DNA of 64,000 bases, from assembly GCA_044507605.1 (NCBI GenBank), contig JBIQJI010000008.1, forward strand, positions 26,395-90,394. Direction: 5' to 3'. This document shows, piece by piece, positions 13,500 through 53,465 of the stretch. The notes under the pieces were generated by a model, which made no database searches, had not been told where the DNA came from, and was given only the letters and a program-made list of their open reading frames with translations. The DNA is from Actinomycetales bacterium (GTDB taxonomy: Bacteria; Actinomycetota; Actinomycetes; Streptosporangiales; Streptosporangiaceae). The stretch's first letter is position 1. Every line of letters begins with the position of its first letter. The translations under genes and the position numbers were made by a program.

Positions 13500-14644
13500 T
13501 ATGCGCCGTCCTCGGTGAGGCGGGCGAACGCGGTCTCGTGGGCGCGGCGGCGGGCCAGGTCGCGGGCGTGGACGTCGCGGGCGACGCGGGCGATGGCCAG
13601 GCCGGGGGCGATCAGGTCCATGCGGCTGGCCGCGGCGATGTCGGTGAGCCAGTCGGCGGGTACGGCGGCGAGGCCGCCGAGGGCGCCGGCGATGGCTCCG
13701 CCCATGCCGGCGATGGAGTCGGCGTCGCGGCCGTAGTTGACTCCGCCGAGCACGGTGTCGCGGTAGTCGCCTTTGGCGATGAGCAGGAACGCGAGGGCCA
13801 TCGGCAGTTCTTCGATGCTGTGCAGCCGGCTCGGCCGGCGGGCGCCGAGGCCCTGGTCGCGGTAGGTGTCGGCGACGGTGTCGTAGGGAGCCATGGCGGC
13901 GCGCAGCGGCGGCGCCGCTTCGGACCAGTGGCCGATGTCGCGGGCCACGGTGCAGACGGCGTCGATGGCGGCGCGGGTGCCGTCGTGGGCGAGCCGCAGG
14001 CAGGTGGCGACGACGGAGTCGGCGGTGGCTCCGGGCCGCATGGCCTCGGCGACGGCGGCGGCCATCACTCCGGCGGCTTCGCGCCCGTAGCTGGACTGGT
14101 GGGCGCCGGCGACGTCGATCGCTTCGGCGTAGGCGCCGTCGGGGTCGGCGGCGTTGACGACGCCGACAGGGGCCATGTACATGGCGGCGCCGCAGTTGAC
14201 GATGTTGCCGACTCCGGCTTCGCGCGGGTCCACGTGCCCGTAGTGCAGTCGCAGCACGAGCCATTTTTCGGCGAGGAACACCCGGTGGAGCGGCAGCGCC
14301 TCGGTCTCCAGTTCCGGGATCCACCGCTTTTCGTCCATCATCTCCGGCACGAGATGGTCGGCGACGGCGTAGGCGTCCAGGTGGCCGCCGACCCGCTCGT
14401 ACACGCGGATCAGTGCGTGCGTCATCATCGTGTCGTCGGTCACGTGCCCGTCGCCCTTGTGGTACGGTGCGATGGGCCGCGCGTCGCGCCAGTTCTCGTG
14501 GTACGGCGGCACGATGCCTTCGACGGGCCCGCCGTAGCGCCGCCGGATCTGTTCCGGCGTCCACCCTTCGGTCGCGCCGCCGAGCGCGTCGCCGACGGCG
14601 ACGCCGGCGATGCATCCGGTGGCCCGGTCCTCAAGCGGCGTCAT
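13499..14644 (-). CDS. ADP-ribosylglycohydrolase family protein (paralog 2)
   Basis: GCIAGVAVGDALGGATEG, HVTDDTMMT and YGRDADSIAGMGGAIAGAL. ATG at 14644 overlaps the upstream gene end. Confidence 0.85.
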   Translation of the reverse strand: MTPLEDRATGCIAGVAVGDALGGATEGWTPEQIRRRYGGPVEGIVPPYHENWRDARPIAPYHKGDGHVTDDTMMTHALIRVYERVGGHLDAYAVADHLVPEMMDEKRWIPELETEALPLHRVFLAEKWLVLRLHYGHVDPREAGVGNIVNCGAAMYMAPVGVVNAADPDGAYAEAIDVAGAHQSSYGREAAGVMAAAVAEAMRPGATADSVVATCLRLAHDGTRAAIDAVCTVARDIGHWSEAAPPLRAAMAPYDTVADTYRDQGLGARRPSRLHSIEELPMALAFLLIAKGDYRDTVLGGVNYGRDADSIAGMGGAIAGALGGLAAVPADWLTDIAAASRMDLIAPGLAIARVARDVHARDLARRRAHETAFARLTEDGA

Positions 14645-15647
14645 GGCGGTCTCCCCTTGCCAGTCCCCGAGCGATGTCAAGTAGATCCTTTCCCCTCATG
14701 TCCGGCAGGGCGCACCCGGACAGGCTGCGCACCGCCGTGCACCATTGGTCGGGCAGCGCCGCGTACCCGGTGGCCGCCCCGGTGAGGGCGCCGGTGAGCG
14801 CGGGGGCCGAGTCGGCCAGCGACGCCAGGCAGGCGGCGGCGGGTACGGCCGCCGCCAGTGCGCCGCCCGACACGTCGGCGAGGGCCAGCGCCACCGGCAC
14901 CGTCTCCGCCGCCGACACGCCGTAGCTGTACACGTGGTCGAGCAGTGCCGCGTCGAGGGCGGGCACGGCCGCGAAGGGGTCGCCCGCCGCGCGGGCTGCC
15001 GTCAGCGCCGTGCGCGCGGCGTGGCCGATGGCGGTGTCGCCGGGCAGCTCGGCCATGGCGGCGGCCACGGCCGTGGCCATCGGCGCGCCGCCGACGAGCG
15101 CGTCGACGGCCGCGGCGATGGCCGCGGCGCCGAGCACGCCGTCCTCGTCGTTGGTGACGTGGGCGTCGGGGCGCGGGTCGGCGCCCGCCGCCCCGAACGC
15201 CACGGCCCGTACGGCCGCGGCGTCGTCGAAGAAGTGCGGGTTGTCGTGCCCGCTCACGGGCGGCCGTTTGCCCGCCGCCAGGTTGTCGAGCGCGGTGCGG
15301 ACCGAGATCCTGGCCCGCAGCGTGTCGCGCCGGGCGGCCAGCCGCCCGAACGCCTCGGCCCGGTCGTCGTGGAGGGTCAGCGCCGTCCAGGCGAGCCATT
15401 CGGCGTCGTCCGACGGCCCGACGGCCAGCGGCTCCACGGGCTGGTTCAGCGCGAACGGCACCGGCAGTGTCGTGACGGCGTGGTCTTCGGCGAACGTGTC
15501 GAGTTCCCGGGCCAGCCGTCTGCTCCAGGGCGCCAGCAGCGCGGCCCGATGCCGTGCGGCGGGCCAGCCGGCGGCGTCGCCGATGGCCAGCCCGATGAAC
15601 GCCCCTTCGATGCGGTCCGTGCGGTCCGTGCGGTCCCCCGAGGTCAT
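14631..15647 (-). CDS. ADP-ribosylglycohydrolase family protein (paralog 3, divergent)
   Basis: IEGAFIGLAIGDAAGWP and SDDAEW. The C-terminal metal motif is degenerate (SLADSAPALTGALTGA). The 5' end contains a 9-bp repeat encoding DRTDRTDR. Confidence 0.75.
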   Translation of the reverse strand: MTSGDRTDRTDRIEGAFIGLAIGDAAGWPAARHRAALLAPWSRRLARELDTFAEDHAVTTLPVPFALNQPVEPLAVGPSDDAEWLAWTALTLHDDRAEAFGRLAARRDTLRARISVRTALDNLAAGKRPPVSGHDNPHFFDDAAAVRAVAFGAAGADPRPDAHVTNDEDGVLGAAAIAAAVDALVGGAPMATAVAAAMAELPGDTAIGHAARTALTAARAAGDPFAAVPALDAALLDHVYSYGVSAAETVPVALALADVSGGALAAAVPAAACLASLADSAPALTGALTGAATGYAALPDQWCTAVRSLSGCALPDMRGKDLLDIARGLARGDRHDAA

Positions 15648-18996: not shown

Positions 18997-19932
18997 TCAG
19001 CTCGCCTCCCTGAACTGGTGCCACAGGTAGACGCCGAGCACGGCCAGCACGATGATCACGATGGCGACGCCGAGCATCGAGGCGTAGCCGAAGAAGCCGT
19101 ACCGGAACGCCTCCTCGTAGGCGAACAGCATCGGCAGCCGGGTGCGCCCGCCGGGGCCGCCCTGGGTGAGCACGTACACCAGGCCGAACTGGTTGATGTT
19201 CCACACGAAGTCGAGCGAGGTGATGGCCGCGATGACGGGACGCAGTTGCGGCAGGGTGATGTGCCAGAAGCGCCGCCAGGCGCGGGCGCCGTCGACCTCG
19301 CCGGCCTCGTACAGCTCCTTGGGGACGTTCTGCAGCCCGGCGAGCAGCACGACGGTGGTCTGCGGCATGCCGATCCACACGCCCACGACGATCACCGCCG
19401 GGAGCGCGAGGCCGATGTCGTTGAGCCAGTCGATGTCCTGGTGCAGCAGGCCGATGTCGCGCAGCGTGGCGTTGAGGATGCCGGCGTTGGGGTGATAGAC
19501 CAGGCGCCACATCAGCCCGATGACGACCGGCGGCATCGCCCACGGCACCACCGCCAGCACCCGCGCGAAGCCGCGGAACCGCAGGTCCTGGTCGAGCAGC
19601 AGGGCCAGGCCGAGCGAGGCGCAGAACTGCAGGAACGTGACCGAGACCGCCCAGATCATGCCGATGCGGAACGATGACCAGAAGTCGCCGTCGGACATGA
19701 GGTCGAAGAAGTTGGCGAGGCCGACGAACGACGTCTCGGCGTTGCGGCCGGAGCGGGCGTCGGTGAAGGCCAGGTAGACGCCGTAGAGCAGCGGGCCGAG
19801 GCTGAACAGCGCCACCGGCACCAGCGCAGGCAGCATCAGCAGCAGCATTTCGCGCCGCCGCCTGGCCGCCACACGGCGGATCCGTGCCCTGGCGTCCGCC
19901 GGTCCGGTCGCGCGGGAGGCCGTCATGGTCAT
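18997..19932 (-). CDS. Carbohydrate ABC transporter permease (MalF-like)
   Basis: EAA loop VPKELYEAGEVDGARAWRRFWHITLPQLRP. ATG 19932 overlaps the LacI stop (ATGA). Confidence 0.9.
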   Translation of the reverse strand: MTMTASRATGPADARARIRRVAARRRREMLLLMLPALVPVALFSLGPLLYGVYLAFTDARSGRNAETSFVGLANFFDLMSDGDFWSSFRIGMIWAVSVTFLQFCASLGLALLLDQDLRFRGFARVLAVVPWAMPPVVIGLMWRLVYHPNAGILNATLRDIGLLHQDIDWLNDIGLALPAVIVVGVWIGMPQTTVVLLAGLQNVPKELYEAGEVDGARAWRRFWHITLPQLRPVIAAITSLDFVWNINQFGLVYVLTQGGPGGRTRLPMLFAYEEAFRYGFFGYASMLGVAIVIIVLAVLGVYLWHQFREAS

Positions 19933-20945
19933 GCGGGCGCCTCCGTCCCGGCCGTCGAGCCGCGCACCACCAGCCGGGGCGCGACCGTCACCACCCTCGC
20001 CGCGCGGTCGCCGTCGGCGAGCCGGTCGAGCAGCAGCTCCGCCGCCGCCCGGCCACGCTCGGCCGAGCCGAGCGACACGCTGGTCAGCGCCGGCCACGTC
20101 ACGGTGGCGAGGTCGGTGTCGTCCATGCCGACCACGGCCACGTCCTCCGGCACCCGCCTGCCCTGCTCGCGCAGCACGTCGAGCGCGCCGAGCGCGATCA
20201 GGTCGTTGGCGCACATCAGCGCGTCCAGGTCACCGGCCCGGGCGAGCAGCCGACGCGCCGCCGCGGCCCCCTCGGCGCGGTAGAAGTCCCCCACCTCGGT
20301 CAGCGTCTCGTCGTACGGCAGCCCGAGCGCGACCAGCGCGTCGGCATAGGCCGCGCCGCGGGCCGAGCCGGGCACGGTGTCGAGCGGCCCGTTGAGGAGC
20401 CCGATGCGCCTGCGGCCCAGTGCGTACAGGTGCTTGACGGCGAGCCGCACGCCCGTGCGCGAGTCGGTCCTGACGTTGTCGGCGCCGGTGCCGTCGGGCA
20501 GCGAGCCGATGATCACGACGGGCGCCCGTGCCGCCCTGATCGCCTTCAGGTGCTCGGTGGTCACCCGCAGCGGGGACATGATCAGTCCGTCGACGTACCG
20601 CTCCCCCAGCGCCCGCAGCACGTCGAGCTCGTCGGCGGCGTCGGCGTCGGTCGAGTGCAGCACGAGCCGGTACCCCGCGGCCTTGAGCACGCGCTGGATC
20701 TCGCGCACCATCGCCAGGTACGTCGGGTTGCCGATGTCGGCCATCGCGAACGCGACCTGGTTGGTGCGCCGCGACTTCAGCGACCTGGCCACGGAGTTGG
20801 GCACGTAGCCCAGCTCCTCGGCCGCCGCGAGCACCCGGCGCACCGTCTCCTGCCTGGTCGGCAGGCCGTTGAGCACACGCGACACCGAGGCGATGGACAC
20901 ACCTGCGCGGTGCGCGATCGTGGTGATCGTCGGCTCGCGGCTCAA
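19929..20945 (-). CDS. LacI family transcriptional regulator
   Basis: N-terminal HTH PTITTIAHRAGVSIASVSRVLNG followed by a periplasmic-binding-fold effector domain. TTG 20945 is preceded by GGAGGA at about 6-nt spacing. ORF 19929..21053 extends further upstream but runs over the operator sites. Confidence 0.85.
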   Translation of the reverse strand: MSREPTITTIAHRAGVSIASVSRVLNGLPTRQETVRRVLAAAEELGYVPNSVARSLKSRRTNQVAFAMADIGNPTYLAMVREIQRVLKAAGYRLVLHSTDADAADELDVLRALGERYVDGLIMSPLRVTTEHLKAIRAARAPVVIIGSLPDGTGADNVRTDSRTGVRLAVKHLYALGRRRIGLLNGPLDTVPGSARGAAYADALVALGLPYDETLTEVGDFYRAEGAAAARRLLARAGDLDALMCANDLIALGALDVLREQGRRVPEDVAVVGMDDTDLATVTWPALTSVSLGSAERGRAAAELLLDRLADGDRAARVVTVAPRLVVRGSTAGTEAPA

Positions 20946-20972
20946 GGGCGCTCCTCCCTGGTTCAGCCTACG

Positions 20973-20984
20973 GTAAACGTTTAC
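20973..20984. promoter_or_regulatory. LacI-type operator, perfect 12-bp palindrome GTAAACGTTTAC (site 1)
   Basis: Perfect palindrome with the central CG typical of LacI/GalR operators, 28 bp upstream of the LacI start. Confidence 0.65.
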
Positions 20985-21004
20985 AGTGCCCCCCGCAGCG
21001 ACCT

Positions 21005-21016
21005 GTAAACGTTTAC
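21005..21016. promoter_or_regulatory. LacI-type operator, identical palindrome GTAAACGTTTAC (site 2)
   Basis: Second identical copy 32 bp from site 1. Flanks extend it to TGTAAACGTTTAC. Confidence 0.65.
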
Positions 21017-21273
21017 GGGATGGGGAGCACCATGAAACCGCCCAGGGACACACCCCGTCAAGTCACGATCACGTAAAGGCGCGCCTCCGGGTGCGGGGGC
21101 GGCCCCGGAGCGGCCCGGCCCGGCCGCGCAGCGCACTAATTGACATCTCCGCTAATATCAGCCCAAATCCCCATACAGACGGGTCGTAATTGACGATTGA
21201 TCAAGTAACTGCATACCAGGCTGCAACCTCTCTGAGATATATTTTCCCACCAGATAACGGAAGGGTGGGGCGG

Positions 21274-22161
21274 ATGTGGGGATTGCGCATCCTCGGGCTC
21301 ACGCTGCTCGTCCACTGTGTCATCGGAGGCATCGGATCGATGCTGTTCCCCGGCCCGCCCGCGTATGCGTCGGCGACCCCTGATCCCACGCCCGAAGACC
21401 TCACCGCGTCCGCCCGTCACGCACGCTGCCTGGACCAGGAGAAACGCGACGACCTCGCCCGTGCGGCCGTCATGCAGAAAGTCGCACCGCGTCTGATCGG
21501 CACCGACAAACTGAGCCGTGGTAAGGGATATATTACGTTGGAGCAATGGCTCGCCACCGACGAACGGACATTCGACCGGCTGTGCTCCGCGCTGCTCGGC
21601 CTTGACGACAAAACCAAAGACGATTCCGGCGACGGGACCTGGTCGACGCTGCTCCAGACGATCGCGGCGGTGGTGTTCGGCTCCGCGGGCACGCTGTTCG
21701 TGTCGTCGTGGCAGGGGCGTAAGGCGCTGGGCAAGGAGCTGCGGACCGCCTCGAATCACTTCCACCACGCCTTCTCCGTCTATCTGCGCGGCTGGGAAAC
21801 CACCGGATTCACCGATGCCGACGCGCTGGCCGACGCTCGCTCGCAGCTGCGGAACAAGCTGGGCGACGTCCAGGATGCCAAGCCGCACTGGCGGCGGCCC
21901 CGCCAGCTCCTGGAGCTCCTCGACGCCCCCGCCCTCGAGGAAGGCGACAACGCCCTGTGGACGGAGCAGACGCAGGACGAGCGCCATCGGCACGCGACCG
22001 AGATGAGGGATCGGCTGGAGATGTTCCGGCGGGACGTGGACAAGCTGGGCATCGCGCTCCAGCATCCCCGGCCGCTGAGTTTCCGTCGCTCCGCCGCGAG
22101 CTACCAGGCCGCGCTTCGGGACGGCCTCCTCAAGGCCGCGCCGACGGACCCCGCCGCCTGA
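21274..22161 (+). CDS. Hypothetical signal-anchored / two-TM membrane protein (cassette gene 1)
   Basis: ATG 21274 is preceded by GGAAGGG. Signal-like MWGLRILGLTLLVHCVIGGIGSMLFPGPPAYASA and a second TM WSTLLQTIAAVVFGSAGTLFVSSW, followed by a charged helical tail. The stop lies 1 nt before the next start. The ORF track begins at TTG 21190. Confidence 0.6.
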   Translation: MWGLRILGLTLLVHCVIGGIGSMLFPGPPAYASATPDPTPEDLTASARHARCLDQEKRDDLARAAVMQKVAPRLIGTDKLSRGKGYITLEQWLATDERTFDRLCSALLGLDDKTKDDSGDGTWSTLLQTIAAVVFGSAGTLFVSSWQGRKALGKELRTASNHFHHAFSVYLRGWETTGFTDADALADARSQLRNKLGDVQDAKPHWRRPRQLLELLDAPALEEGDNALWTEQTQDERHRHATEMRDRLEMFRRDVDKLGIALQHPRPLSFRRSAASYQAALRDGLLKAAPTDPAA

Positions 22162-22162
22162 C

Positions 22163-23296
22163 ATGTCGAACCCCCCGACTCCCAGCCTGCTCCCCGGCCC
22201 GCAGCCGGGCGCGGCGACCCACCGCAACCCGTACCTGCCTCCCGGGCAGGAGGAGGCGACGGCGAACGACCACGTCGCGATGCTGCGGCCGTGGCGCAAC
22301 CGGCTGCACCACGACTTCTACGTCGTCCTGGCGGCCGTCGCGGAGAGCCACGAGAGGTTCCGCGGCAGGTTCAGGGATCCGAACGTCGTGCTGGAGCAGG
22401 GGCAGCTCATCACGGTGACCGGTGCCCGGGGCACGGGAAAGAGCGCCTTGCTCCACCGGTTCGCGGGGCTGCTGGCCTACTCCAGCCCGAAATACTCGCG
22501 AGGCGATCCGGCGGACGTGTCCGGCGGGCTCCCCGGCCGGCTGGACGGCCAGATGCCGCTGATAGCGGACCTGAGCGAGGCCCACGCCCTGAACGTTGTC
22601 CCGCAGGACGCGACGCCGCTGGACGAAGGGCGGACGAAGGAGCAGAACATCTACGAAGCCGTGATCGCCGACCTCAAGAGCCAGCGCAAGCTCACCGAGG
22701 CCGAGGCCGACCGGCTGCGGACGGACGCCATCATCATCGACCAGCGGTGCCGGGCGGACGTGCCCCGTGGCTACGAGAAGCTGGCGGACGCCCTGGAGGA
22801 CAAGAACGCCGTCCTCGTGGTGCTGCTGCCGCCCATCGACAAGGTCGGCGAGTTGAACTTCTACCTGCGCATGGCCAGGAAGCGCCTGGTCTTCATGGCC
22901 GAAAGCGTCGCGCTGGCCGACCGTGCCGACCTGGCGAGCATGGTCAAGGGCATGCATTACTCCGCGTTCACCCATCTGCGCACCGGGATGCTGACGGCCG
23001 CGGACATCAGGCGGTTCATCGCCGCCCGGCAGAACCGCGCGGCTCAGGACGGCCGCCCGTGGGTGACGGTCACCGACGAGGTGATCGAGCAACTGTGCGT
23101 GCGCTTCGCCGGCCAGACGGTGGAGCAGCTCCGCGGCGCCCTCTGCGAGCTGTGCCACGTGGCGATCACGGGCTCGGGCGTCGTCGACATCGCGCTGTAC
23201 AGGGAGTACTCGCGCCAGGAGTTCTTCCTGGCCAGCGCGATGCGCAGGGTCCGGCGCGACGGCGGGCGCAAAGGCCCGAAGGGCACGAAGGGGTAG
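22163..23296 (+). CDS. Hypothetical P-loop NTPase (cassette gene 2)
   Basis: Walker A GARGTGKS (22421-22444). Walker-B-like AVLVVLLPPID. No further family is recognisable. Confidence 0.7.
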   Translation: MSNPPTPSLLPGPQPGAATHRNPYLPPGQEEATANDHVAMLRPWRNRLHHDFYVVLAAVAESHERFRGRFRDPNVVLEQGQLITVTGARGTGKSALLHRFAGLLAYSSPKYSRGDPADVSGGLPGRLDGQMPLIADLSEAHALNVVPQDATPLDEGRTKEQNIYEAVIADLKSQRKLTEAEADRLRTDAIIIDQRCRADVPRGYEKLADALEDKNAVLVVLLPPIDKVGELNFYLRMARKRLVFMAESVALADRADLASMVKGMHYSAFTHLRTGMLTAADIRRFIAARQNRAAQDGRPWVTVTDEVIEQLCVRFAGQTVEQLRGALCELCHVAITGSGVVDIALYREYSRQEFFLASAMRRVRRDGGRKGPKGTKG

Positions 23297-23308
23297 AGAG
23301 GCGACCGT

Positions 23309-25567
23309 ATGCCGCGCATGCAGAATCCGTTTCCGGTGACACCCGCCCTGCGTCTGTCCCCTTTCCAGCTGACCACCCCGCCCGGCGCGGACTTCACGGT
23401 CGTGACGTCCGCGACCGAGGACGCCCGCGACTATGTGGAGAGCTACCTCGACGAGGCGGACCGATGGGAGGCCGAACGCGCGGCCGGGGCCGAGCCGCCG
23501 CCGCTGTCGGGCAGGGTGCTCGGGGTGTCCGGCGACTACGGGTCCGGGAAGACGCACCAGCTCATCGACATCGCGCGGCTCGTCCACGAGTCCGGTGCCC
23601 GGGAGCACGGCGCGAAGGTCCGGCTGCTCCTGCTGGACGCGCCTCGCGGCGGCATCGCTGCGGCCTACCGCGACCAGCTCATCGGCCAGTTCGACCCGGA
23701 CGCCATCGTCGAGCTGCTCAAGGACTACCACGGCGACACGGTCGCGGAGGGGGTGGAGAACGTACCGTTCCCGCCCGGCAGCGAAGCGGAGGACGGCAAG
23801 CGGGCCATCGCCCGCGGCCTGCGGCAGGGCGAGCTCGACCCCGAGGGCGTCACCCAGGCGTACCTGCTGTCGGCAAGCGACATCGAGGCGCGGCTGGCCA
23901 CACGGCTCAGGGGCGTCGCCGAACACTGGGAGTTCGCCAAGGCGCTCACGCTGATGCTCGACCCACCGTCGCGGGACGCCGCCTGGCGCTGGTTCCGCGG
24001 TGACGCCCCGGGGAAGGAGCTGCGCGACAACGGGATCACGGCGTCGATCGCCACCGAATCGATGGCCTACGACGCGCTCGCCGTCCTCGCGTTCCTGCAC
24101 GGGCGCCGGGGCCAACGCATCGTCTTCATCGTCGACGAGTTCGAGAAGCTGCTGGAGGACACGGAAGTCGGACGGCTCGCCTCGCTCCAGGCGTTCGAAC
24201 GGCTCGCAGGCGTCTTCATCGACGCCGGCTGCCTGCTCGTCTTCTCCGCGTCGAAACAGGCCATCGGCCGGCTGTCCGGCGGCCTGCGGGAGCGCACGTA
24301 TCACGTCTCGCTGGCGCCGCTCGACCGCGCGGAGACCGAGCGGCTGATCGAGGGGCACCTGTCCGGGCTGGTGTCGCGCGGGGACGAGGTCTTTCCCGAG
24401 CCCACGGTGACATGTGTCGGCGACCTCGGCGAGGGCAACCCCCGCCGCGTCATCTCGCTGTGCCGGGGCGGGTTCCGGCTGGCCGCCGCCAGGCCGGGGG
24501 GTGACGCGGAGGTGACGGTGACCGAGGACAACGTCCGCGCCTTCGCCCACCAGGAGTACGAGCGGTTCTCCCTGCCCGAGGCCGTGAGCGCCGCGCGCGA
24601 CATCCTGCAGGCCGACGGCTGGCCGCTGCCGGCCGACGACCACCTAGGGTCGCGCCCGCCGGTGGACTTCTGGGTCGACGCCGACGACGCAGTCATCGCG
24701 GTCATCGTGACCGACTCGCTGCTGAGCAGGCAGGACGCCGAAACGCTCTTCGGGCGCGTGAGCGACGCCGAGCTGCGCGCCTCACCACAGCCGTGTCAGA
24801 CCATCATCGTGGTCAACGGGCACGTCTCGCGGTCCGCTCGGGACGCCGTGGTCCAGCGCATCGGGCGCAACCCGGTGATCCATCAGGGCACGGGGTTCGG
24901 CAACGACTTCCGCGCGGCGCTCCTCGACGCCCACCGGCGGCTGCACAACCAGGCCCGGCGCGACGACCTCGCCAAAATCCGCATCACGGTGGAGCAGATC
25001 CTCCGGCAGCAGGAACGGACGCAGCACGCGATCGACAGGCTGCGACGGCGGAGCGGCGCGCGGACCGCCGCGGAGGGGGCCGACGCCGGACCCGGCCCGT
25101 CCCAGGCCGGGTCGGCGCTGCCGGGGCACGTCGACGACGACGCCGTGGCAGGGCTGCCCCGCGAGGTCCTCGACGAGTTCCGGCGCGCTCGGGACGAGAT
25201 CCCGGTCGACCGCGACATCGAGCACCCGTTCGACCACCTGTTCCGGCAGCCCGGCGACGGCGAGCGGACCGCTTCGCCCCGCCGGGCCATGCGCCGGGAC
25301 CGGTTCGAGGACATCGGCGTCATCTGGACGACTGAGCAGCTGGTGCTCGCGTTCCGCGACGCCGTCGCGCGCTGGTACGCGGCCGGGCCGCAGGACGGCA
25401 CCGGGAGAGGCGACGCCGAGCGGGAGGAGGAGCTGCGCCACATCTGCCGGATGTACGAGTCGGCCGCCGAGGACGTGCTGCCGCTTCTGTTCAGGAGGCA
25501 TGCCTACACCGGCACCGGCCCGCTGGAGCAACTGGGTTCGCGCGTGCGTGAGCTGCTGTTACGGTGA
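23309..25567 (+). CDS. Hypothetical AAA+/ORC-like P-loop NTPase with extra C-terminal domains (cassette gene 3)
   Basis: Walker [10 protein letters not shown] (23531-23557). Walker [13 protein letters not shown] (24116-24151). Sensor-1-like CLLVFSAS. Lid motif [16 protein letters not shown]. About 300 further residues of unknown fold. Confidence 0.75.
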
Positions 25568-26908
25568 CCTGCGGTCGAGGGCACAGCCGGGCTCGGCAGC
25601 GTCCTCAGCAGTGTTCTCGCAGGTGTCCTCGCAGGTGTCCTCGGCGATGGGTGCGCCGGTGGTCCCGGCGATGGGCTCGGCGATGGGCCCGCCTGCGGGT
25701 TCGGCGATGGGCTCGCCGGTGGGTTCGCCGAAGACGTAGCGGCCCCGGGGCCGGCCGGCGATGCGCTCGAGAATGTCCAGGCGGTCGTCCCACAGTGCGT
25801 TGGTCACGATGTGCAGCACGTTGACGGTCAGGATGGCCGGCGCGACGATGGCGACGGCGTCGGGGAAGCTCGGCTCCAGCGCCAGCGCCAGCAGGATCGC
25901 GGTGATGCCGTTCTGCTGCCCCAGCGCCAGGTAGACGCGGTCGGTGCGGGTCATGCGCCGGGCGATCAGCCACCCCACCACGATCTGCGCGCCGAAGGCG
26001 GCGGCGCCGAGCGCCAGGCCGGGAACGATCTGGACGCCGCCGAGCAGCAGCACACCGAGCGCGAACGTGGCGAGGGCGAACGCCACCGAGATGGCGCGGT
26101 CGAGGACGACCGGCTCGTCGAGCCGGAGGAACAGCCCGATCAGCGCGATGCCGAGCAGCAGGAACTGCCACGAGGCCACGCCCACCAGCAGCGCCACCAC
26201 GGCGATCGAGCCGGCGCGGACCCATGGCCGCGCCTGCAGCGGCGCCTGCGCGGGCCGGCGGCTCGCCCAGCGCCGCACGACCAGCAGGCCGAGCCACACG
26301 ACCAGCACGAAACCGAGGTTGCGGCCGATGTTCACGAGGTAGGAGCCGATCCCGGTGTCGCCGAGGACGGCCGCCGCCACGCCTCCCGCTCCGCCCGGTG
26401 TCGCGGCGAGCGCCCACGCCGAAAGGTAGACGGTGAGCAGCGCCGTGATGGGGTCGTCGAACGACGCCCACGCCAGCAGCAGCCCTTTACCGCGTTCGGA
26501 CATCCGGGAGCGGCCGAGCAGGGCGGACACCGAGAGCGGGTCGATCTGCGCGACGGCGATGCCCAGGACGAGGGCCGTGGGGTCGCGGAACAGGGCGTAC
26601 ATCACGCCGGCGATGAGCGCGGTCTTGAGCAGCACGCCGAGCGTGACCGCCAGCACCACCGTGCCCAGGTCACGGTAGACGGCGCGGGGGATGCCCGAGG
26701 CGCTGCCGTAGAGGCCTAGGGCGAGCAGGGTCGTGATGGCCTGCAGGTAGATCGGGCTGTCCGCCACCTCGCCCATGCCGGCGACACGCGCGACCGCGTA
26801 GCCGAGGACGGCGATGCCCACGGTGGCCGTGAGCCGCCGCGCGGCGGGCCCCGTGATGATCGTGCGCAGCGTGGGCACGTCGGCACCTCCGCCCGCCCCG
26901 TCCGTCAC
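25559..26908 (-). CDS. Cation:proton antiporter (Na+/H+ exchanger family)
   Basis: About 11-12 TM helices. Contains [18 protein letters not shown] (the DD motif region of the CPA family). Acidic repetitive C-terminal tail. Confidence 0.8.
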
Positions 26909-27048: not shown

Positions 27049-28107
27049 TTACGCGGTCCACGCTCGGCCGTTCTCGCCGGCGGTGAATATTTCGCGGGCG
27101 CCGGTCAGCAGGTGCCGGAAACGCAGATCGGCGCGCCTGACCGCGTGTTGATGAAGAGTCACCCCCAGTGCCAGGCCGGGAAGCGATGGCAGCACATGCA
27201 CATAAATAGCGCCTTGCTGCACATCAAGGACCAGCGACTCGATGGTTTCACAGGCCATCGCGTGTAACGCGTGCGCGACCTGGGCGAGCCCTTTGGGCAA
27301 CGACCGGCCGAGCCGGCAATAATGGTCGCGCTGCGTCTGGTACGCCTGTGCGTCGGTCAGCCAGCCGCCGAACGGCTCCCCGAACCACGGCTGCTCGGCC
27401 AGCTCCGCATCGGCGAGGACATCGGCCGAGTACAGCAGCCGCGGCCCCTGGAAAAAGGCGACGTAATGCAGGTCCTCGACGTTCAGCGCCGCCTCGCACA
27501 AGGCCGCCATGCGGTCCCGGGCGTCGCCGGCGAGCCCGTCCGCGTGCACGGTCACGTGGGCGGTCCTCGTCACCGGTGGCGGGAGGGGGTCCCCCCAGCC
27601 GCCGGGATACTCCTCGTCCAGGCGGTAGTGGCGGCGGATGTCGGTGACCGCGTAGCAGGCCTGCTTGTCCATTTCGTCGACCATCTCGCGGACGGCGGGC
27701 CCGGCCGCGGCGGAGCCGCCCCGCCTGAGCGCGGTCAGGTACTCGTCGGGGCGCACCCTGCCGCAGTGGACGCCCTCGGCGCCGGTCGTCACCACGGTGC
27801 GCATCAGCTCTCCACTGCGCAGCTCCGCCAGGTCCCGGTCGAACATCTCGGCCTGGATGACGAGCTGGCGCAACGCCGCCTCACACTCGTGCGGCGCGGG
27901 CAGTTCTCCGGACGACGGCGGCCGGAGGAAAAACTCGCGGAACCCGTTGTAGAAGTAGCCGGTGAGATCCGCCACCCCGCTGTCGATCAGCCGCTCCCGG
28001 CAGATCCCCTGGTGTGAGGTGTAATCGCGATAGGCCACGATCTCCTGGTGATCCTCCCAGCCCTCGCCGCCGGGGTCGCTGATCGGCACCGTGCCGATGT
28101 CGGGCAT
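27049..28107 (-). CDS. Hypothetical cytoplasmic protein, co-directional partner of the STAND gene
   Basis: High-GC3 ORF 64 nt downstream of the 28172 stop. No motif is recognised. The C-terminal segment IESLVLDVQQGAIYVHVLPSLPGLALGVTL is faintly Roadblock/LC7-like. Confidence 0.65.
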   Translation of the reverse strand: MPDIGTVPISDPGGEGWEDHQEIVAYRDYTSHQGICRERLIDSGVADLTGYFYNGFREFFLRPPSSGELPAPHECEAALRQLVIQAEMFDRDLAELRSGELMRTVVTTGAEGVHCGRVRPDEYLTALRRGGSAAAGPAVREMVDEMDKQACYAVTDIRRHYRLDEEYPGGWGDPLPPPVTRTAHVTVHADGLAGDARDRMAALCEAALNVEDLHYVAFFQGPRLLYSADVLADAELAEQPWFGEPFGGWLTDAQAYQTQRDHYCRLGRSLPKGLAQVAHALHAMACETIESLVLDVQQGAIYVHVLPSLPGLALGVTLHQHAVRRADLRFRHLLTGAREIFTAGENGRAWTA

Positions 28108-28171: not shown

Positions 28172-31100
28172 TCAGTATCCGGGCACCTCGATCTCGATGT
28201 CGCGCCGAACGGGCTTGGCCTCGGCGCCGCCGGGCGTGCCGTGGCGTGGGCGCGCCTGCGGCGGCTTCGAGTCGAGCTGCGACAGGGTGTCCCGCAGGTT
28301 CTCGCGCGCGATGCGCAGATCGCGCGGATCGCGGATCTCGGCGGCGCCGAACAGCCACTGCAGTCGTTCGCAGGCGACCTGCTCCAGGTCGCGCGCGGCC
28401 CGCGGGCCGTTCACGAGCAGCTCGGTGTTGGCGTGGTTGACGGTGGCGGTGAGCGTGACGGGATGCCACTCGCCGAGCCGCTCGGCCAGCCCGCGCCGGC
28501 TCTCCTCGCCGTGCCGCAGCGCGTCGTACCGCCGGCCCTCCTTGCGCAGGTAGACCGCGAGGTTCGCCTGGCACATGAAGGTGAACGCGTGGTCGCCGAG
28601 GATGGCGCGGAACCGTTCGAGGCAGTGGCTCGCGTGCTCGACGGCCCCGGAGTAGTCGTCCTGCGCGTGCAGGTCGGCGGCCACGCTGGCGAGGCAGCGC
28701 AGCGTGAGGATGTCGTCGTCGCCGAGCAGGCGGCGATACTGCTCCAGCACCTCGGCATTACGGCTCCGCGACTCCGCCACCTTGCCGAGCCCGCGCTCGG
28801 TGACCGCGAGGCCGTACTCGATGCGCAACCGGTCGAGGCTGCGCGTGCCGAAGGGTTCCTTCTCCCGCCGCACCAGCCGGGCGAGAGCGCGTCTCAGCCA
28901 CAGGTGCGCCTCTTCGTACTCGCCGAGGCAGCGCAGGGTGCCGGCCATGTTGACGACGGTCCACCAGGCGTCGTCGTCGTCTTCGCCGGCCACCTGCCGA
29001 GTGCGTTCGAACCGCTCCCGCGCCTGCTTCAGGGCCGCGGTGTAGTCGCCGTTGAGGTGCATCGAGGCGGCGAGGTTGTTGAGCGCCCGGCCCGTCATGC
29101 GGTGGTCGGCCCCCAGGGCCTCGCGCAGGTTCTTGACGGCCCGGTCGTCCCAGCCGAACGCCTCCTGGAAGGCGCCGCGGGCCCGCAGCACGATGGCGTA
29201 GCGCGACATCGTGGCCCACAGCTGCGGGTGCCGGTCGTGCAGGATGCGCCGGTGCCAGTGCCACGCCGTGCGGATGTGGGTGAGCGCCTGGTCGTACGCG
29301 CCGAGTTTGCGGCAGGCCTCGGCGAGCTCCATGAGCAGGTCGACCTTGACCAGCAGCCTGCGCGCGAGGGCGTCATCGGGCTGCTCCGGCCGCCTGAGCA
29401 GCGCGTCGGCGTCGGGCTCCCAGCTCCGCGCGCACGAGTCACCGATCTGCCGGGCCCGCTCCCAGGCGGTCTTGTCGGCCACCTCGACAAGGCGGCGGAC
29501 CTGGTCGACGATCCATCGACGGACCGCCGGGTCGGTGCTCGCCCCGGCGTAGTCCGCGTCGATGTGCACGCTGCTCTCCATGACGTCCTGGTCCCATACC
29601 GCAGCCTGCTCCGACCCCGCCGGGGGGCGTGTCTGGGCCGGGCGGTGCGCCGCGAGCACGCGGTAGATCGCGGTCCGCTCCGTCTCGGCCTGCTCGGCGG
29701 TCATGTCGGCCCGGACGAACTCCGCGATGACACGATGCATCTTCAGCCGCCCGCCGCGAGCGAAGGAGACGGCGGCCAGGCCGAACCGGTCGATGGCCCA
29801 CAGCACGGCGTCGACCAGCACCGGGTAGTGGAAACCGACGCCGTGATCGGCGAGCTCGTCGCACATCGCCCGGGAGTTCAACCGGTCGACCTCGACGCCG
29901 TCGGGCGACAGGAACGAGCACATGCGCAGCACCCGCCGACCCGCTTCGCCGCCGGGGCCGGCGAGCAGCCGCTCCATCGCCAGCCGCACCGTCGCCTGGT
30001 ACACCGGCACCTGGTGCACCGGCGGATGGACCGGGGCGGCCCGCCCCGCGGGCTGACGCCTTCTCACGGAGCCGGCCTCTTGCCGGAATCTGGTCACGAA
30101 TTCGTCGACCGTCTTCCCCGCCTGGGCGGCCAGCAGCTCGTTGTCCTCGCGCAGCCCGCTCAGCCGGTCGAGCACCCACCCCGCGGCGAGCTCGATGGCG
30201 AGCGGATAGCCCTCCACCGTGCCGGCCAGCAGCTCGGCGGCGGAGTCGGGGATGAGCTCCCGGGGAAACGTGATGCCGAGGTGCGGCCAGGTCTGCTGCT
30301 TGTACCGGATCAGCTCCAGGCTCTCGGCCGTGGTCAGCGGCCTGACCTCGATGTGACGAGCGCGCTCGCTGGGCTCGACCTCGCGGGCGGTGATCACGAC
30401 GTCACCGGTGCCCTCACGGGGGATCAGGCCGTCGAGCGCGCGCAGATCCTCGACGTTGTCGTAGACCAGCAGCCAGCGCATCTCGCCGTCGTGTTTCAGC
30501 CTGTCGAGCACGGTGTCGACGAGGTCGGTGCCCCTGGGCAGCTCCAGCCGCGCGGCGAGCCCGCCGAGCCCGGCACGGACGGTCTGCTCCGTCTCGGCCG
30601 CCACCCACCACACCACGTCGTACGCGCCGGCGTAGCGGTGGGCGTATTCGAGGGCGATCTGGCTCTTGCCGACTCCCGCCACGCCGCGCAGGGTGGCCCA
30701 GCGGACCGAGCCGCCATCGCCGGTCAAAAAGTCGCGCAGCTCCTGGATCACCGCGTCGCGGCCGACGAACGACGGGTTGCTGCCCGGCAGCCGCTCGATG
30801 TCGGGTGGCCGGGGGAACCTGCGTCTGCCGGTGGGCGGGAAGTCGCCGGACCGCCCGGGCGATGGCGGCCCGCCGATGCGCAGCCCTTGGTACAGCCGGT
30901 TGCGGGCGTCGCCTTCGGGCAGGTCGGTCAGGTCGAGCTCGTCCAGGCCGTCGGGCGGATCGGGGAAGCCGGCGCGGTCGACCCGCACGGCCAGCACCTT
31001 CGCACGCTGGATCAGGTCGGCGAGCCGCCGTTTCAGCCGCCGGTCGAGCCCGGGCGGGGAGACGAGCAGGACGGCGGTGTGCGGGTCGTTCGCCACCCAG

Positions 31101-32134
31101 GCGAATCCGGCGACGGCGATCTCCTCGACCTGTACGCCGGCGCGCCCGACCTGTTCGGCGATCCACTCGGCCCAGGCCTCGTAGCGGGGGGTGTGGACCA
31201 CGAGCACGCGGTCGATCGCGGAGACCCGGCCGTCGGTGAGCACCTCGACGAGCCGCTCGCACGCCTCTCGGACACCGCCCGGCCCCCCCGTCGGCTCCTG
31301 GAGCACCGCGGGGACGTCGGAGAAGGAGGACGCCTCGTAGGGCATCTGAGGGAGGCCGGGGGCATCGCCGGAGGCGCCGGCCGGCCCGGCGATGGGGCCG
31401 AACCGGCGCAGGGCCAGGTCGCGCGGCTCGTCGACGTTCGGGACGGACCCGTCGACCCGCATGGCCAGCGGGACGACGCGCGGCGGGTGCGGGCCGGCGG
31501 CGCGGATGTCGGCGGCGAACCCGGCGGGCTCGTCGACGTAGTCGCGGGTCAGCGAGAAACAGACGACCGCCTGGTCGCCGAGCCCCGCGATCCAGGCCGT
31601 CACATCGTCCGACCAGCCCACCGGCGCATCGATAAGTACGTAGTCATATCCGGACGTTTGCAAATATGACCGAAATGTCGTTATCCATCCCGAATCAACG
31701 GCCAAGCGCAGCGATTCGGACGAGGATCGGGACGCCGAGCCGTAGGTCAGCAGATCGATGGCGCCACGGTCGGTCACGTCGGTGAGATTGAGCCGGATCG
31801 GGTCGGACCGGAGTTCGAGCGCCGCGGGATCGCGATCGTTGCGCTCGATCAGGTCGGACAGCCCGCGGCCGCGAGGATCGGGCTCGTCGGGCAGATAGCG
31901 CCGCAGATAGCGATGGAAGTCGCGGGACCGTGGCTCGCAATCGACGACCAGGACCCGCATGCCCGCCCTGGCCAAAATGACCGCCGCGTTGGCGACGGTG
32001 GTCGTGCGGCCGACGCCGCCCCGGGCCGAACAGAAAATCAGGACCCGGCCAGGACCGCTGGAATCGGCTCCCATCGTCGCTCCCATCGCGTCATCGCGCA
32101 CCCGCGCCGGTCGAGGTGGGCGGAAATGCCGCAA
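28172..32134 (-). CDS. FxsT-like STAND protein: ParA/MinD-like (KGGVGR-variant) domain + TIR-like domain + NB-ARC NTPase + TPR array
   Basis: - aa 28-230: ParA-like (VLIFCSARGGVGRTTTVANAAVILARAGMRVLVVDCEP ... DYVLIDAP).
- aa about 307-390: TIR-like (VLVVHTPRYEAWAEWIAEQVGRAGVQVEE...AVLLVSPP).
- aa about 455-660: NB-ARC (FVGRDAVIQELRDFL...LRGVAGVGKSQIALEYAHRYAGAYDVVWWVAAE...WLLVYDNVED...GYPLAIELAAG).
- aa about 940-1250: TPR (LNNLAASMHLNGDYTAALKQ...).
- The first codon at 32134 is TTG. ATG alternatives lie at 32086 and 32074. Confidence 0.85.
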   Translation of the reverse strand: MRHFRPPRPARVRDDAMGATMGADSSGPGRVLIFCSARGGVGRTTTVANAAVILARAGMRVLVVDCEPRSRDFHRYLRRYLPDEPDPRGRGLSDLIERNDRDPAALELRSDPIRLNLTDVTDRGAIDLLTYGSASRSSSESLRLAVDSGWITTFRSYLQTSGYDYVLIDAPVGWSDDVTAWIAGLGDQAVVCFSLTRDYVDEPAGFAADIRAAGPHPPRVVPLAMRVDGSVPNVDEPRDLALRRFGPIAGPAGASGDAPGLPQMPYEASSFSDVPAVLQEPTGGPGGVREACERLVEVLTDGRVSAIDRVLVVHTPRYEAWAEWIAEQVGRAGVQVEEIAVAGFAWVANDPHTAVLLVSPPGLDRRLKRRLADLIQRAKVLAVRVDRAGFPDPPDGLDELDLTDLPEGDARNRLYQGLRIGGPPSPGRSGDFPPTGRRRFPRPPDIERLPGSNPSFVGRDAVIQELRDFLTGDGGSVRWATLRGVAGVGKSQIALEYAHRYAGAYDVVWWVAAETEQTVRAGLGGLAARLELPRGTDLVDTVLDRLKHDGEMRWLLVYDNVEDLRALDGLIPREGTGDVVITAREVEPSERARHIEVRPLTTAESLELIRYKQQTWPHLGITFPRELIPDSAAELLAGTVEGYPLAIELAAGWVLDRLSGLREDNELLAAQAGKTVDEFVTRFRQEAGSVRRRQPAGRAAPVHPPVHQVPVYQATVRLAMERLLAGPGGEAGRRVLRMCSFLSPDGVEVDRLNSRAMCDELADHGVGFHYPVLVDAVLWAIDRFGLAAVSFARGGRLKMHRVIAEFVRADMTAEQAETERTAIYRVLAAHRPAQTRPPAGSEQAAVWDQDVMESSVHIDADYAGASTDPAVRRWIVDQVRRLVEVADKTAWERARQIGDSCARSWEPDADALLRRPEQPDDALARRLLVKVDLLMELAEACRKLGAYDQALTHIRTAWHWHRRILHDRHPQLWATMSRYAIVLRARGAFQEAFGWDDRAVKNLREALGADHRMTGRALNNLAASMHLNGDYTAALKQARERFERTRQVAGEDDDDAWWTVVNMAGTLRCLGEYEEAHLWLRRALARLVRREKEPFGTRSLDRLRIEYGLAVTERGLGKVAESRSRNAEVLEQYRRLLGDDDILTLRCLASVAADLHAQDDYSGAVEHASHCLERFRAILGDHAFTFMCQANLAVYLRKEGRRYDALRHGEESRRGLAERLGEWHPVTLTATVNHANTELLVNGPRAARDLEQVACERLQWLFGAAEIRDPRDLRIARENLRDTLSQLDSKPPQARPRHGTPGGAEAKPVRRDIEIEVPGY

Positions 32135-32259: not shown

Positions 32260-32442
32260 TCATTTATCTTGGGGCGGCTGACTCGACTGCACCAGTGGTG
32301 CCGCCGAACCACATTCCAGGTCGTGCAGGATCCGGTCGAGCGCGCCGTTCAGCGCCCGTTTCGACAGTCCGGCGGTTCCGTACAGCCCGATACCCGCGAC
32401 ATCGACTATGTCGGACTCTAGATCGTATCTAGGGGAACCCAT
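32260..32442 (-). CDS. Candidate 60-aa FxSxx-COOH-like precursor peptide (variant C-terminus)
   Basis: ATG start, directly upstream of and co-directional with the FxsT-like gene. The leader-like pattern SDIVDVAGIGL...LSKRALNGALDRIL resembles my recollection of FxsA leaders. The C-terminus is ...PLVQSSQPPQDK, with VQSSQ where FxSxx would be and 5 extra residues. GC3 is lower than in neighbouring genes, with rare codons AGA, CTA and ATA. Confidence 0.45.
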   Translation of the reverse strand: MGSPRYDLESDIVDVAGIGLYGTAGLSKRALNGALDRILHDLECGSAAPLVQSSQPPQDK

Positions 32443-32610: not shown

Positions 32611-34014
32611 ATGCCGCATTTGGGAAGGCGCGGCGAGAACGAACCCGGGCGCGCTCGGCCCGGCCCTCCCCCACCCCGCCACGGCCTTCGCCAGCAGGTG
32701 TTCGACGACCTCGCCCGGGGCGGCGGCGGAGCCGAGGCGGCGCGGCTGCTCGCCACCGCCGAGTTCAGCAAGCATCTGCTGCTGCTCCGGCTCGTCGTCG
32801 CCGAGGCGGAGACGGTCCGGCACCCGCAGGCGGCGGAGACCGCCGACGCCTACGACACGCTGGCCGCGCTGCAACGGCTGGCGCCGGGCCCGGTCGAGGC
32901 GGTGATCCGCTACCCGGCGGTGGGCGTCTGGGCGTACCGGACCATCCAGGCGCTGCGCGGCCCGCGACCCCTCGACGCGCGTCCCGCCCGGCTCACCGCG
33001 ATCGCCGCCAGCGCGGCGATCAGCGGCCGGACGTCGGCCACGCTGCGGGTGCACGCCGACGGTCCCGTCGTCGCCCTGCCCGGCGTCGGGCTGGCCGTGC
33101 TGCCGGGGTCCGCGACCGGCGGGACGGTCGCGCTGCGCACCGGACCCGACGGCGCCCTGCTGTCCTCGGGCGGCGCACGCGTCCACCTGCCCGACGAGCC
33201 GGACACCGACGGCGAAGGCTGGTCGGGCACGCGCGTCCTGTCGCTGCCGCACGACGGACGGCCCGATCCGCTGCGGCTCGCCGTCGACGACCTCGACCCG
33301 TACCGGTTCCCCAGCGAGCTCGTCCACGGGCGGCTGTCGGCGGAGCAGTCCCGCCGCTTCACCGGGGCGGTCGCCGCCGGATGGGAGCTGCTGGCCAGGC
33401 ACCACGCGGAGGTGACCGCCGAGGTGCCGGCCGTCATCACCACGCTCACCCCGCTCACGGCACCGCGCGGAGCCATCGTCAGCGCGTCGTCGGGAGCGGC
33501 GTTCGGCTGCGTCGCCCTCTCCGAGCCGCCCGACGACCGCGCCGCCGCCGTCACGTTCGCGCACGAGCTGCGGCACGCCAAGCTGTCGGCCCTGATGGAC
33601 CTGTTCCCGCTGGTCCGGGCGGCGCCGCACGAGCTGTTCTACGCGCCCTGGCGCGAGGACCCGCGGCCGCTGTCCGGCCTGCTCCACGGCGCGTACGCCT
33701 TCGCCGGGGTCGCCGCCTTCTGGGGCCGGCAGCGGCACATCGAGACCAGCGGGCGGGCGGTGCTGGAGGCCAACGTCCGGTTCGCCCGATGGCGCGACGC
33801 CGCGCTGGGGGTGGCGCGGTTCCTGGCCGGGTCCGATCGGCTGACCGATGCCGGGCGGCGCTTCGCCACCGGCCTGCTGGCGGAACTGGAGGAATGGCAC
33901 CGCGCGGACGTGCCCGCCGAGGCCGCCGCCCGGGCCCGCGACGAGGCGGCCCGGCACCTGGCCCGCTGGACGAGCCGGCACGGGCCGCCGCCGAACGCGC
34001 CGTACCCCGGCTGA
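32611..34014 (+). CDS. HExxH-motif domain protein (aKG-HExxH peptide beta-hydroxylase / FxsC-like family)
   Basis: HELRH at 33562-33576 within FAHELRHAKLSAL. N-terminal LLATAEFSKHLLLLRLVV and overall length fit the stand-alone HEXXH-domain family seen in FxSxx loci. Divergent from the peptide gene. Confidence 0.7.
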   Translation: MPHLGRRGENEPGRARPGPPPPRHGLRQQVFDDLARGGGGAEAARLLATAEFSKHLLLLRLVVAEAETVRHPQAAETADAYDTLAALQRLAPGPVEAVIRYPAVGVWAYRTIQALRGPRPLDARPARLTAIAASAAISGRTSATLRVHADGPVVALPGVGLAVLPGSATGGTVALRTGPDGALLSSGGARVHLPDEPDTDGEGWSGTRVLSLPHDGRPDPLRLAVDDLDPYRFPSELVHGRLSAEQSRRFTGAVAAGWELLARHHAEVTAEVPAVITTLTPLTAPRGAIVSASSGAAFGCVALSEPPDDRAAAVTFAHELRHAKLSALMDLFPLVRAAPHELFYAPWREDPRPLSGLLHGAYAFAGVAAFWGRQRHIETSGRAVLEANVRFARWRDAALGVARFLAGSDRLTDAGRRFATGLLAELEEWHRADVPAEAAARARDEAARHLARWTSRHGPPPNAPYPG

Positions 34015-34733: not shown

Positions 34734-35033
34734 ATGACACGTGAGATCCCGGTGACGCAGGCACGCGCCGAGCTGGCCGAACTGGTCAACCGCGTGGCCT
34801 ACAGCGGGGAGCGGGTCGTGCTCACCCGCCATGGCCGGCCGCTCGCCGCGCTCGTGTCCTCCGACGACCTCGAACTGCTGGAGGCGCTGGCCGAGCAGCG
34901 CATCGCCGTGACCTCCATCGGCCCCGGCGAGCAGGGCGGCCCGCCCGCCCGCGACGACGCCCCGCTGCGCATCGTCGCCGAGCACCGCCCGAGCGGCTTC
35001 GAGCGCCCCGGCGGCTTCGGCATCGGCACCTGA
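34734..35033 (+). CDS. Type II toxin-antitoxin system Phd/YefM family antitoxin (no cognate toxin adjacent)
   Basis: MTREIPVTQARAELAELVNRVAYSGERVVLTRHGRPLAALVSSDDLELLE is the canonical Phd/YefM N-terminal domain. Confidence 0.8.
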   Translation: MTREIPVTQARAELAELVNRVAYSGERVVLTRHGRPLAALVSSDDLELLEALAEQRIAVTSIGPGEQGGPPARDDAPLRIVAEHRPSGFERPGGFGIGT

Positions 35034-53342: not shown

Positions 53343-53465
53343 AGCACAAATCGCCTCATGTACACAACTCTCTTCCCGCACAGCCGCAAGGCGGGCCAGG
53401 GTCGACCCCGCCGCCTTTAGCCGTGCCCGGGAAACCCCCCGTCCCTTCTCCTGGAGGACCTTGGC

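Follow-up and report, generated by a model that had tools for sequence, protein, structure and literature searches.

The FxSxx-COOH (Fxs) system, as laid out in the NCBIfam families of D. Haft, consists of the FxsA peptide, the radical SAM/SPASM cyclophane synthase FxsB, an aKG-HExxH enzyme, and a STAND protein with tetratricopeptide repeats (TPRs). Kaur, Burroughs, Iyer, and Aravind described this peptide-processing module, in which the aKG-HExxH enzyme appears as a 'metallopeptidase', as tied to an AP-ATPase (Kaur et al. eLife 2020; PMC7159879, section 24). The module is usually attached to vWA-MoxR-VMAP ternary systems, and 'related standalone' actinobacterial versions have an AP-ATPase with an extra inactive MinD/ParA-like domain; a defense role for this class of systems is the view of those authors (PMC7159879). 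Here, we analyzed a 64,000-nucleotide stretch of DNA from an Actinomycetales bacterium (contig JBIQJI010000008.1, positions 26,395 to 90,394; the window, at its full length), in which three tightly spaced genes, g1, g2, and g3, run toward a group of Fxs genes and two neighbors of these, c2 and c4. This trio appears to be a nucleoside triphosphatase (NTPase) and membrane module of the known Fxs system, undescribed in the literature that we found; the text of PMC7159879 names no AAA+ partner and neither c2 nor c4. On balance, we consider it probable that the trio forms one arm, the left, of a two-armed locus conserved in actinomycetes, that the convergent right arm is a 'stand-alone' Fxs system, and that the left arm acts as a nucleoside triphosphate (NTP)-dependent gate. 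The trio occupies the following positions in the window.

21274-22161, plus strand: g1, 295 amino acids (aa)
22163-23296, plus strand: g2, 377 aa
23309-25567, plus strand: g3, 752 aa

The right arm faces it with the following genes.

25559-26908, minus strand: c4, a membrane protein with 9-11 transmembrane (TM) helices; in the public annotation, the gene begins at 26878 (439 aa)
27049-28107, minus strand: c2, a cytoplasmic protein of 352 aa with two homologous domains of ~100 aa each
28172-32134, minus strand: STAND protein with a MinD/ParA-like domain, a TIR-like region, an NB-ARC domain, and TPRs (Pfam)
32260-32442, minus strand: candidate FxsA-like precursor, 60 aa, assigned from its position and leader similarity
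32611-34014, plus strand: aKG-HExxH-type peptide beta-hydroxylase (TIGR04267, 163.8 bits, cut-off 40)

Two proteins of the window are members of the Fxs families. The TIR/STAND protein scored 556.5 bits against NF040586, the model of the FxSxx-COOH system tetratricopeptide repeat protein (cut-off 300), and is, as judged from this family match, the TPR protein of an FxSxx-COOH system. Its MinD/ParA-like domain has a variant P-loop, RGGVGRT, which fits the published description of an 'inactive MinD/ParA' domain and matched the KGGVGR-type model NF047398 below cut-off; the start codon is uncertain, being either the TTG at 32134 or a downstream ATG. The second member is the aKG-HExxH enzyme, whose gene is divergent from the STAND operon. 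The window differs from the described system in that it contains no FxsB (TIGR04269) gene and in that the ORF at 32260-32442 has no match to TIGR04268, the FxSxx-COOH precursor model. Because this model was not reached, the assignment of the candidate precursor rests on position, strand, and leader, the last being 22-36% identical to the leaders of bona fide FxSxx-COOH precursors. The candidate core, PLVQSSQPPQDK (VQSSQPPQDK), has no aromatic residue and has Val where Phe is expected, and this Val in place of the aromatic residue crosslinked by FxsB would fit the loss of FxsB from the window. In related loci, both of these components are above cut-off, with the radical SAM gene exceeding the TIGR04269 threshold (460.7 vs 370 bits in locus L066) and the small gene being an FxSxx-COOH precursor (TIGR04268, 43 bits against a cut-off of 28). 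The 'mic' ADP-ribosylated triceptide cluster (PMC12912966) was also considered and is a different gene cluster.

Related loci were collected with an alignment of a g3 subgroup (A3), giving 80 loci from species-representative genomes of more than 15 genera, and were analyzed by tblastn with the window proteins, by our own gene calling and clustering, and by hidden Markov model searches of six-frame translations. The genera include Saccharothrix, Actinosynnema, Umezawaea, Lentzea, Saccharopolyspora, Kibdelosporangium, Amycolatopsis, Actinokineospora, Micromonospora, Actinoplanes, Actinomadura, Spirillospora, Actinoallomurus, and others, and the use of a tighter g3 subgroup biases the 80 loci toward Pseudonocardiaceae and Micromonospora. 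All methods gave one order: g3, preceded by g1 and g2 where these are present, lies tail-to-tail with c4 (where present), c2, the STAND gene, and the peptide gene on the opposite strand, and beyond the peptide gene stands, in divergent orientation, an FxsB radical SAM gene and/or a homologue of the window gene at 32611-34014. Both c2 and the STAND gene were present in 72 of the 74 loci that have at least 6 kb downstream of g3, a set that spans Pseudonocardiaceae, Micromonosporaceae, and Actinomadura-type genera. Among the 73 loci with full flanks, the peptide gene was found in 71, the radical SAM gene (FxsB) in 65, the HExxH gene in 64, c4 in 55, g2 in 54, and g1, lying upstream of g2, in 28. 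Around the g3 genes closest to that of the window, database gene calls made independently showed the same arrangement, and the outer flanks of these closest relatives are mutually unrelated (cobalamin/TrkH genes, a kinase, and a CBM protein).

The gene order is thus conserved across related loci, and the Fxs reading is supported by an order and orientation that stay constant over three families with differing flanks and by 3' ends that abut or overlap; in the window, the stop codons of the convergent g3 and c4 genes overlap by 9 nt. This result extends the trio beyond the genome in which an initial annotation, made from the window alone, had noticed it, as its genes co-occur across related actinomycete loci. 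It also replaces the view, taken in that annotation, of a self-contained cassette beside a TIR/STAND gene in a defense island, since the STAND gene and the intervening genes partner g3 in nearly all loci with sufficient flank. At least five families (g1, g2, g3, c2, and c4) have no curated model. A limited search of the open literature found no published or curated description of any of the five or of their near-obligate link to Fxs, and no part of the locus is covered by a PADLOC model.

Genomes with two loci gave a further comparison. In Actinosynnema sp. NPDC051121 and in Saccharothrix xinjiangensis, the locus occurs twice, as two complete paralogues, and g3, c2, and the STAND protein sort by locus type, with 59-85% identity between genomes compared to 29-43% within a genome. 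Within the single locus type that allowed a comparison of g2, this protein showed the same relation (76% between genomes, 34% within). Sorting of this kind is as expected for cognate partners. Paralogous subtypes (L013/L045 and L054/L064) also differ in content, one having FxsB and c4 and the other the HExxH enzyme only, without c4; the HExxH-only subtype shares the enzyme set of the window, yet the window does carry c4. The window and several relatives lack FxsB and keep g1-g3, c2, and the STAND gene, and L086 is likewise without FxsB, indicating that such variants recur.

The same survey holds observations that weigh against a gate dedicated to the Fxs module. Since the locus set was anchored on g3, the counts describe the partners of g3 loci and not the frequency of g3 among MinD-type Fxs systems. 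The left arm is separable, as ~21 Micromonospora-type loci have g3 and lack g1 and g2, and g1 is absent from most Saccharothrix loci. Two loci with full flanks (L043 and L055) contain g1-g2-g3 without Fxs genes, and in L088, which has only 2.8 kb downstream, no Fxs genes adjoin the trio. Moreover, the outer flanks are conserved within a genus, so that the loci are not independent observations and their co-occurrence is partly shared ancestry; this same conservation makes the locus unlike a fast-moving island. The three loci without adjoining Fxs genes also speak for the alternative that the trio is an independent system, of defense or another kind, that merely lies beside Fxs as neighbors do in defense islands. 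The arrangement of the arms as distinct, convergent transcription units and the weak similarity of g3 to BrxC/BrxD and mad8 would agree with such independence. It is nevertheless difficult to reconcile with an order and orientation that 72 of 74 loci share, in three actinomycete families and with unrelated outer flanks, with stop codons of the two arms that overlap or abut, with paralogous loci in one genome that each keep their own copy of every comparable part, and with the finding that other defense genes are not conserved around the locus. We therefore regard an independent system as unlikely and favor the two-armed Fxs locus.

Some loci carry additional genes upstream of g3. In the Micromonospora loci that lack g1 and g2 (L047-L062 and L067-L073), a RyR and TrkA_N protein of ~600 aa and a conserved 170-aa protein are encoded divergently upstream of g3, at ~5300-7650. 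In Saccharothrix, Actinosynnema, and Umezawaea (L013, L018, L019, L028-L035, and others), two extra genes lie 2-5 kb upstream of g3, of which one encodes a membrane protein with an LSDAT_prok domain (SLOG of TRPM type; E 8e-48) and the other a fusion of a zinc ribbon and an SDR domain. These two may be further nucleotide-signaling components.

The three genes of the left arm are real genes and tightly spaced. Third-position GC is of the coding type (0.85 for g1, 0.95 for g2, and 0.93 for g3), the signature expected of real genes at the ~72% overall GC of the window, and the public gene calls on identical DNA likewise give products of 295, 377, and 752 aa. The gaps between the genes are 1 nt (g1/g2) and 12 nt (g2/g3), and homologous trios have 4-nt overlaps between genes, which together bear out the earlier proposal of a translationally coupled unit. 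The statement that the trio could not be matched to a named system also stood for its proteins, as g1, g2, and g3 were all below cut-off in Pfam, NCBIfam, and PADLOC, with sub-threshold matches to generic P-loop families and weak ones to BrxC_BrxD, NACHT, and mad8. A sequence search of the PDB with the trio proteins gave P-loop matches only.

In word-indexed protein searches, g3, g2, and a g3 sub-alignment recovered nothing beyond the query itself or an nSTAND1 protein that is unrelated. An exhaustive phmmer search over 1.84 billion cluster representatives found 318 representatives related to g3, 141 of them with E < 1e-30; nearly all of the latter are 700-800 aa long and align end-to-end at 27-36% identity. 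In 88 homologues, the Walker A residues G75, G78, G80, and K81, the Walker B residue D276, and the lid arginine R379 are invariant, and E277 and R329 are near-invariant. The Walker A and B motifs and the lid motif (GNPRR) that had been read from the g3 sequence were thus confirmed, with ~320 further residues after them, and the conservation of the catalytic residues suggests that g3 is presumably an active ATPase. An AlphaFold model built on the family alignment reached a pLDDT of 87.6 and a pTM of 0.78, compared to a pLDDT of only 40.8 for a single-sequence model. With residues ~30-440 of the former, Foldseek returned ORC1/Cdc6, TnsC, and BrxC at a probability of 1.00 and E 6.5e-6 to 3e-4, with modest TM-scores on target of 0.40-0.55. 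In a comparison of the g3 profile with the PDB, VchTnsC of Tn6677 was the best match (E 1.1e-5), spanning the Walker A, Walker B, and sensor-2 regions of g3, and Cdc6/ORC1, DnaA, and DnaC were weaker. Among 25 g3 homologues, weak matches to BrxC_BrxD were seen in 20, and ORC-CDC6-like and TniB matches in 10. As judged by its modeled fold, g3 is an AAA+ protein of the ORC/Cdc6-TnsC/TniB-BrxC kind. A helical insertion of ~150 residues separates its Walker A and Walker B motifs, and the ATPase region is followed by a small alpha/beta domain (~450-530) and then by a long coiled helix that leads to a helical bundle; in these regions, the family alignment contains no catalytic-looking conserved residues. 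Docking of an N-terminal NPF motif, common to g2 and g3, on the MinD-like domain of the STAND protein was considered and is not supported, as the motif persists in loci without a STAND gene and in loci without g1/g2.

This fold raised the question of BREX, as the initial annotation had been reminded of BrxC- and BrxD-type ATPases by the g3 P-loop. The likeness stood as regards the fold: g3 shares with BrxC/PglY and BrxD an ORC/Cdc6-like core, a P-loop of the form GxxGxGK[ST]H, and a long extension at the C-terminus, and BrxC structures are among its Foldseek matches (E ~1e-4). Membership in BREX did not stand. The match of g3 to Pfam PF10923 was 14.2 bits against a cut-off of 22.2, the PADLOC BrxD model matched one homologue only (E 2e-4), ORC/Cdc6 and TnsC fit g3 better than BrxC does, and no PglZ, PglX, BrxA/B, or BrxL gene was found among the Pfam-annotated neighbors in the window or the conserved clusters of the 80 loci. 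A comparison to the TnsC/TniB proteins of Tn7-type elements gave a similar result, in that TnsC is the best PDB profile match of g3, yet no transposase, TniQ, or transposon ends lie near g3, and the helical insertion and the 320-residue C-terminal region of g3 are absent from TnsC. The PADLOC mad8 (MADS) model reached E 1.6e-5 to 6e-3 over the P-loop region, which is not a significant match, and the window annotations show no methyltransferase or other mad genes near the trio.

Since the best fold and profile matches of g3 are initiator-clade AAA+ proteins that load DNA or are bound to it, g3, with g2, could instead be a DNA-binding AAA+ regulator similar to ORC/Cdc6, DnaA, or TnsC that regulates the transcription of the facing fxs operon or acts on foreign DNA. 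We consider this very unlikely, given that no winged-helix or helix-turn-helix family was found in 25 g3 homologues, that the C-terminal 320 residues have no conserved charged signature of catalysis or DNA binding, and that the structural matches to these proteins are modest in TM-score.

The second ATPase of the left arm, g2, carries the Walker A motif GARGTGKS that had been recognized from the window, and G87, G92, and K93 are invariant in the family alignment. The hhhhD segment taken for its Walker B did not hold up, as it lies only in insertions unique to the window protein; the equivalent in the g2 family is hhhF..ES (LVFMAES), which aligns to the Walker B of g3. In the family consensus, the acidic Walker B pair is not intact, Glu replacing Asp and Ser replacing the catalytic Glu. 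A degenerate Walker B beside an intact Walker A suggests that g2 binds nucleotide and hydrolyzes it poorly. The g2 family aligns to g3 over the 390 residues at its N-terminus (hhalign 87.5%, E 3.6e-6), and an NP[FY] motif near the N-terminus, within the aligned region, is common to both. From this alignment, g2 is predicted to be a shorter (truncated) paralogue of the g3 ATPase module. The Pfam AAA_16 match of g2 was weak, and its profile meets the AAA domains of midasin around the P-loop only.

The layout read earlier for g1, with a signal, two Cys residues, one TM helix, and a charged helical tail, was confirmed and is conserved in 21 homologues. The N-terminus is hydrophobic (6-24) and ends in PAYA/SA, and it is followed by an outside segment of ~90 aa with Cys52 and Cys104, a TM helix (125-143), and a charged, helical, cytoplasmic C-terminal tail of ~150 aa. 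Both Cys residues and the overall layout are invariant across the 21 homologues, and in several of them a lipobox replaces the AxA signal. By these features, g1 is a predicted bitopic membrane protein with a disulfide-type outside domain.

On the opposite arm, Pfam Na_H_Exchanger was matched by 2 of 23 c4 homologues (best E 6.8e-10), and c4 is therefore best described as a putative distant relative of Na+/H+ exchanger-like membrane proteins. The two domains of c2 are an internal tandem duplication (hhalign 99%, E 6e-18), and c2 has no Pfam relatives and no PDB relatives. A Roadblock/LC7-like assignment of c2 was considered and dropped, as neither Pfam nor PDB backs it and the internal duplication alone is solid.

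A transporter-like c4 and an outward-facing g1, in a locus that holds a precursor, FxsB, and the aKG-HExxH enzyme, could also mean that the left-arm genes and c4 are accessory to the pathway of a peptide made by ribosomes and modified after translation (RiPP), serving the export, self-protection, or leader handling of the Fxs triceptide; c4 would then be the exporter, and the ATPases would act as chaperones. This appears quite unlikely to us. No protease, ABC, or MFS exporter domain was found in g1-g3 with Pfam, NCBIfam, and PADLOC, c4 is missing from about one quarter of the loci, and g1-g3, c2, and the STAND gene are retained in the window and in several relatives that have no FxsB. ORC/Cdc6-type AAA+ proteins are not known as RiPP export factors, which also counts against this role.

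A described precedent for the favored reading, a left arm that gates the Fxs system, is found in the VMAP ternary systems (vWA, MoxR AAA+, and VMAP). Both have a multi-gene NTPase module beside a peptide-plus-STAND module in filamentous actinomycetes, and the logic of both would be that of a gate driven by ATP and set next to an effector or sensor. They differ in their ATPases, which here are of the ORC/Cdc6/TnsC kind, and no match to the vWA, MoxR, or VMAP domains was found in g1-g3, c2, and c4, beyond an ivWA match in 1 of 25 g3 homologues; this one is the window protein itself (E 0.009), and the match was set aside as chance. As other FxSxx modules adjoin the NTPase 'thresholding' trio vWA-MoxR-VMAP, g3, with g2 and g1, may by analogy be read as the corresponding gate of the MinD-type systems.

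In the mechanism that we propose, g2 and g3 would form a mixed AAA+ assembly, with g3 as the active and g2 as the regulatory subunit, as in ORC/Cdc6 or clamp-loader assemblies. Where present, g1 would tether this assembly to the membrane or bring in a signal from outside. The assembly could then serve as an NTP-dependent switch or threshold device that gates either the STAND/TIR protein or peptide handling; c2 may be an adaptor here, and c4 may provide a membrane output or export route. The Fxs output might be anti-phage or self-destructive, or it might be a developmental signal, and we offer a defense role as a hypothesis. A fuller version, which we put forward tentatively and hold to be doubtful, is that 'stand-alone' Fxs is a nine-gene machine in which the g3/g2 pair links a cue from the envelope or from a peptide to a TIR-STAND protein whose TPRs read the modified C-terminal peptide. 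The pair would be helped by g1 as a membrane sensor that bears a disulfide, c2 as adaptor, and c4. If this were true, the orphan Fxs triceptides would have a biological role, signaling inside the cell or between kin through an NLR-like pathway in filamentous bacteria. The Fxs peptides, FxsB, and the aKG-HExxH enzyme have so far been studied as chemistry, and the linked TIR/NB-ARC/TPR protein is among the most widespread NLR-like proteins of actinomycetes. The present analysis names one particular AAA+ protein, and with it two more unknown proteins, as concrete, testable partners of the Fxs module and corrects the 'stand-alone' view of these systems.

Upstream of g1, composition marks one further feature.

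21090-21273, plus strand: AT-rich leader before g1, ~57% GC

The AT-rich boundary reported before g1 was thus found again, at ~57% compared to ~72% GC for the window. A direct repeat, TAATTGAC, lies inside this leader at 21137-21144 and 21187-21194, 50 bp apart. The leader is a candidate promoter/operator region and the repeat a possible, putative regulator site; a sigma-70 consensus scan of the stretch before g1 gave no promoter match.

To the right of the HExxH gene lie two genes that had been cited, together with the TIR/STAND gene, as signs of an accessory or defense island.

34050-34670, minus strand: solitary ClpP
34734-35033, plus strand: Phd/YefM antitoxin, with no toxin ORF noticed

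All three genes are located as the initial annotation stated, and as evidence of an island the latter two failed, because neither is conserved with the locus in other genomes; they are uninformative about it. In L085, an aldo/keto reductase gene stands directly after the HExxH gene, and its equivalent in the window (35229-36203) stands after ClpP and Phd, which suggests that these two may be an insertion. The ABC permease, aldo/keto reductase, and ClpP of the window are singletons, or close to it, when 15 billion proteins are clustered at 90% identity. Singleton status was rejected as a sign of a strain-specific island, as flanking genes of housekeeping type are singletons too; that ordinary flank genes are singletons points to a poorly sampled lineage with no closely related sequenced genome.

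On the left side, the LacI and sugar ABC genes beside the trio are not conserved with the locus. Two TGTAAACGTTTACA-like palindromes (20969-21025) lie at the 5' end, or upstream, of the LacI-family gene (19929-21053, minus strand); they are probably the putative operators of this gene, and their positions suggest that its true start is downstream of the start of the longest ORF. An ADP-ribosylglycohydrolase family gene (13499-14695, minus strand; Pfam E 3.8e-50) lies ~7 kb to the left of the locus, is not conserved with it, and is of possible interest beside a TIR protein. At the far right, a lower-GC region (53421-63695) contains four large ORFs of 837, 804, 967, and 636 aa, with an unusually low first-position GC of 0.56-0.62 and a third-position GC of 0.93-0.97.

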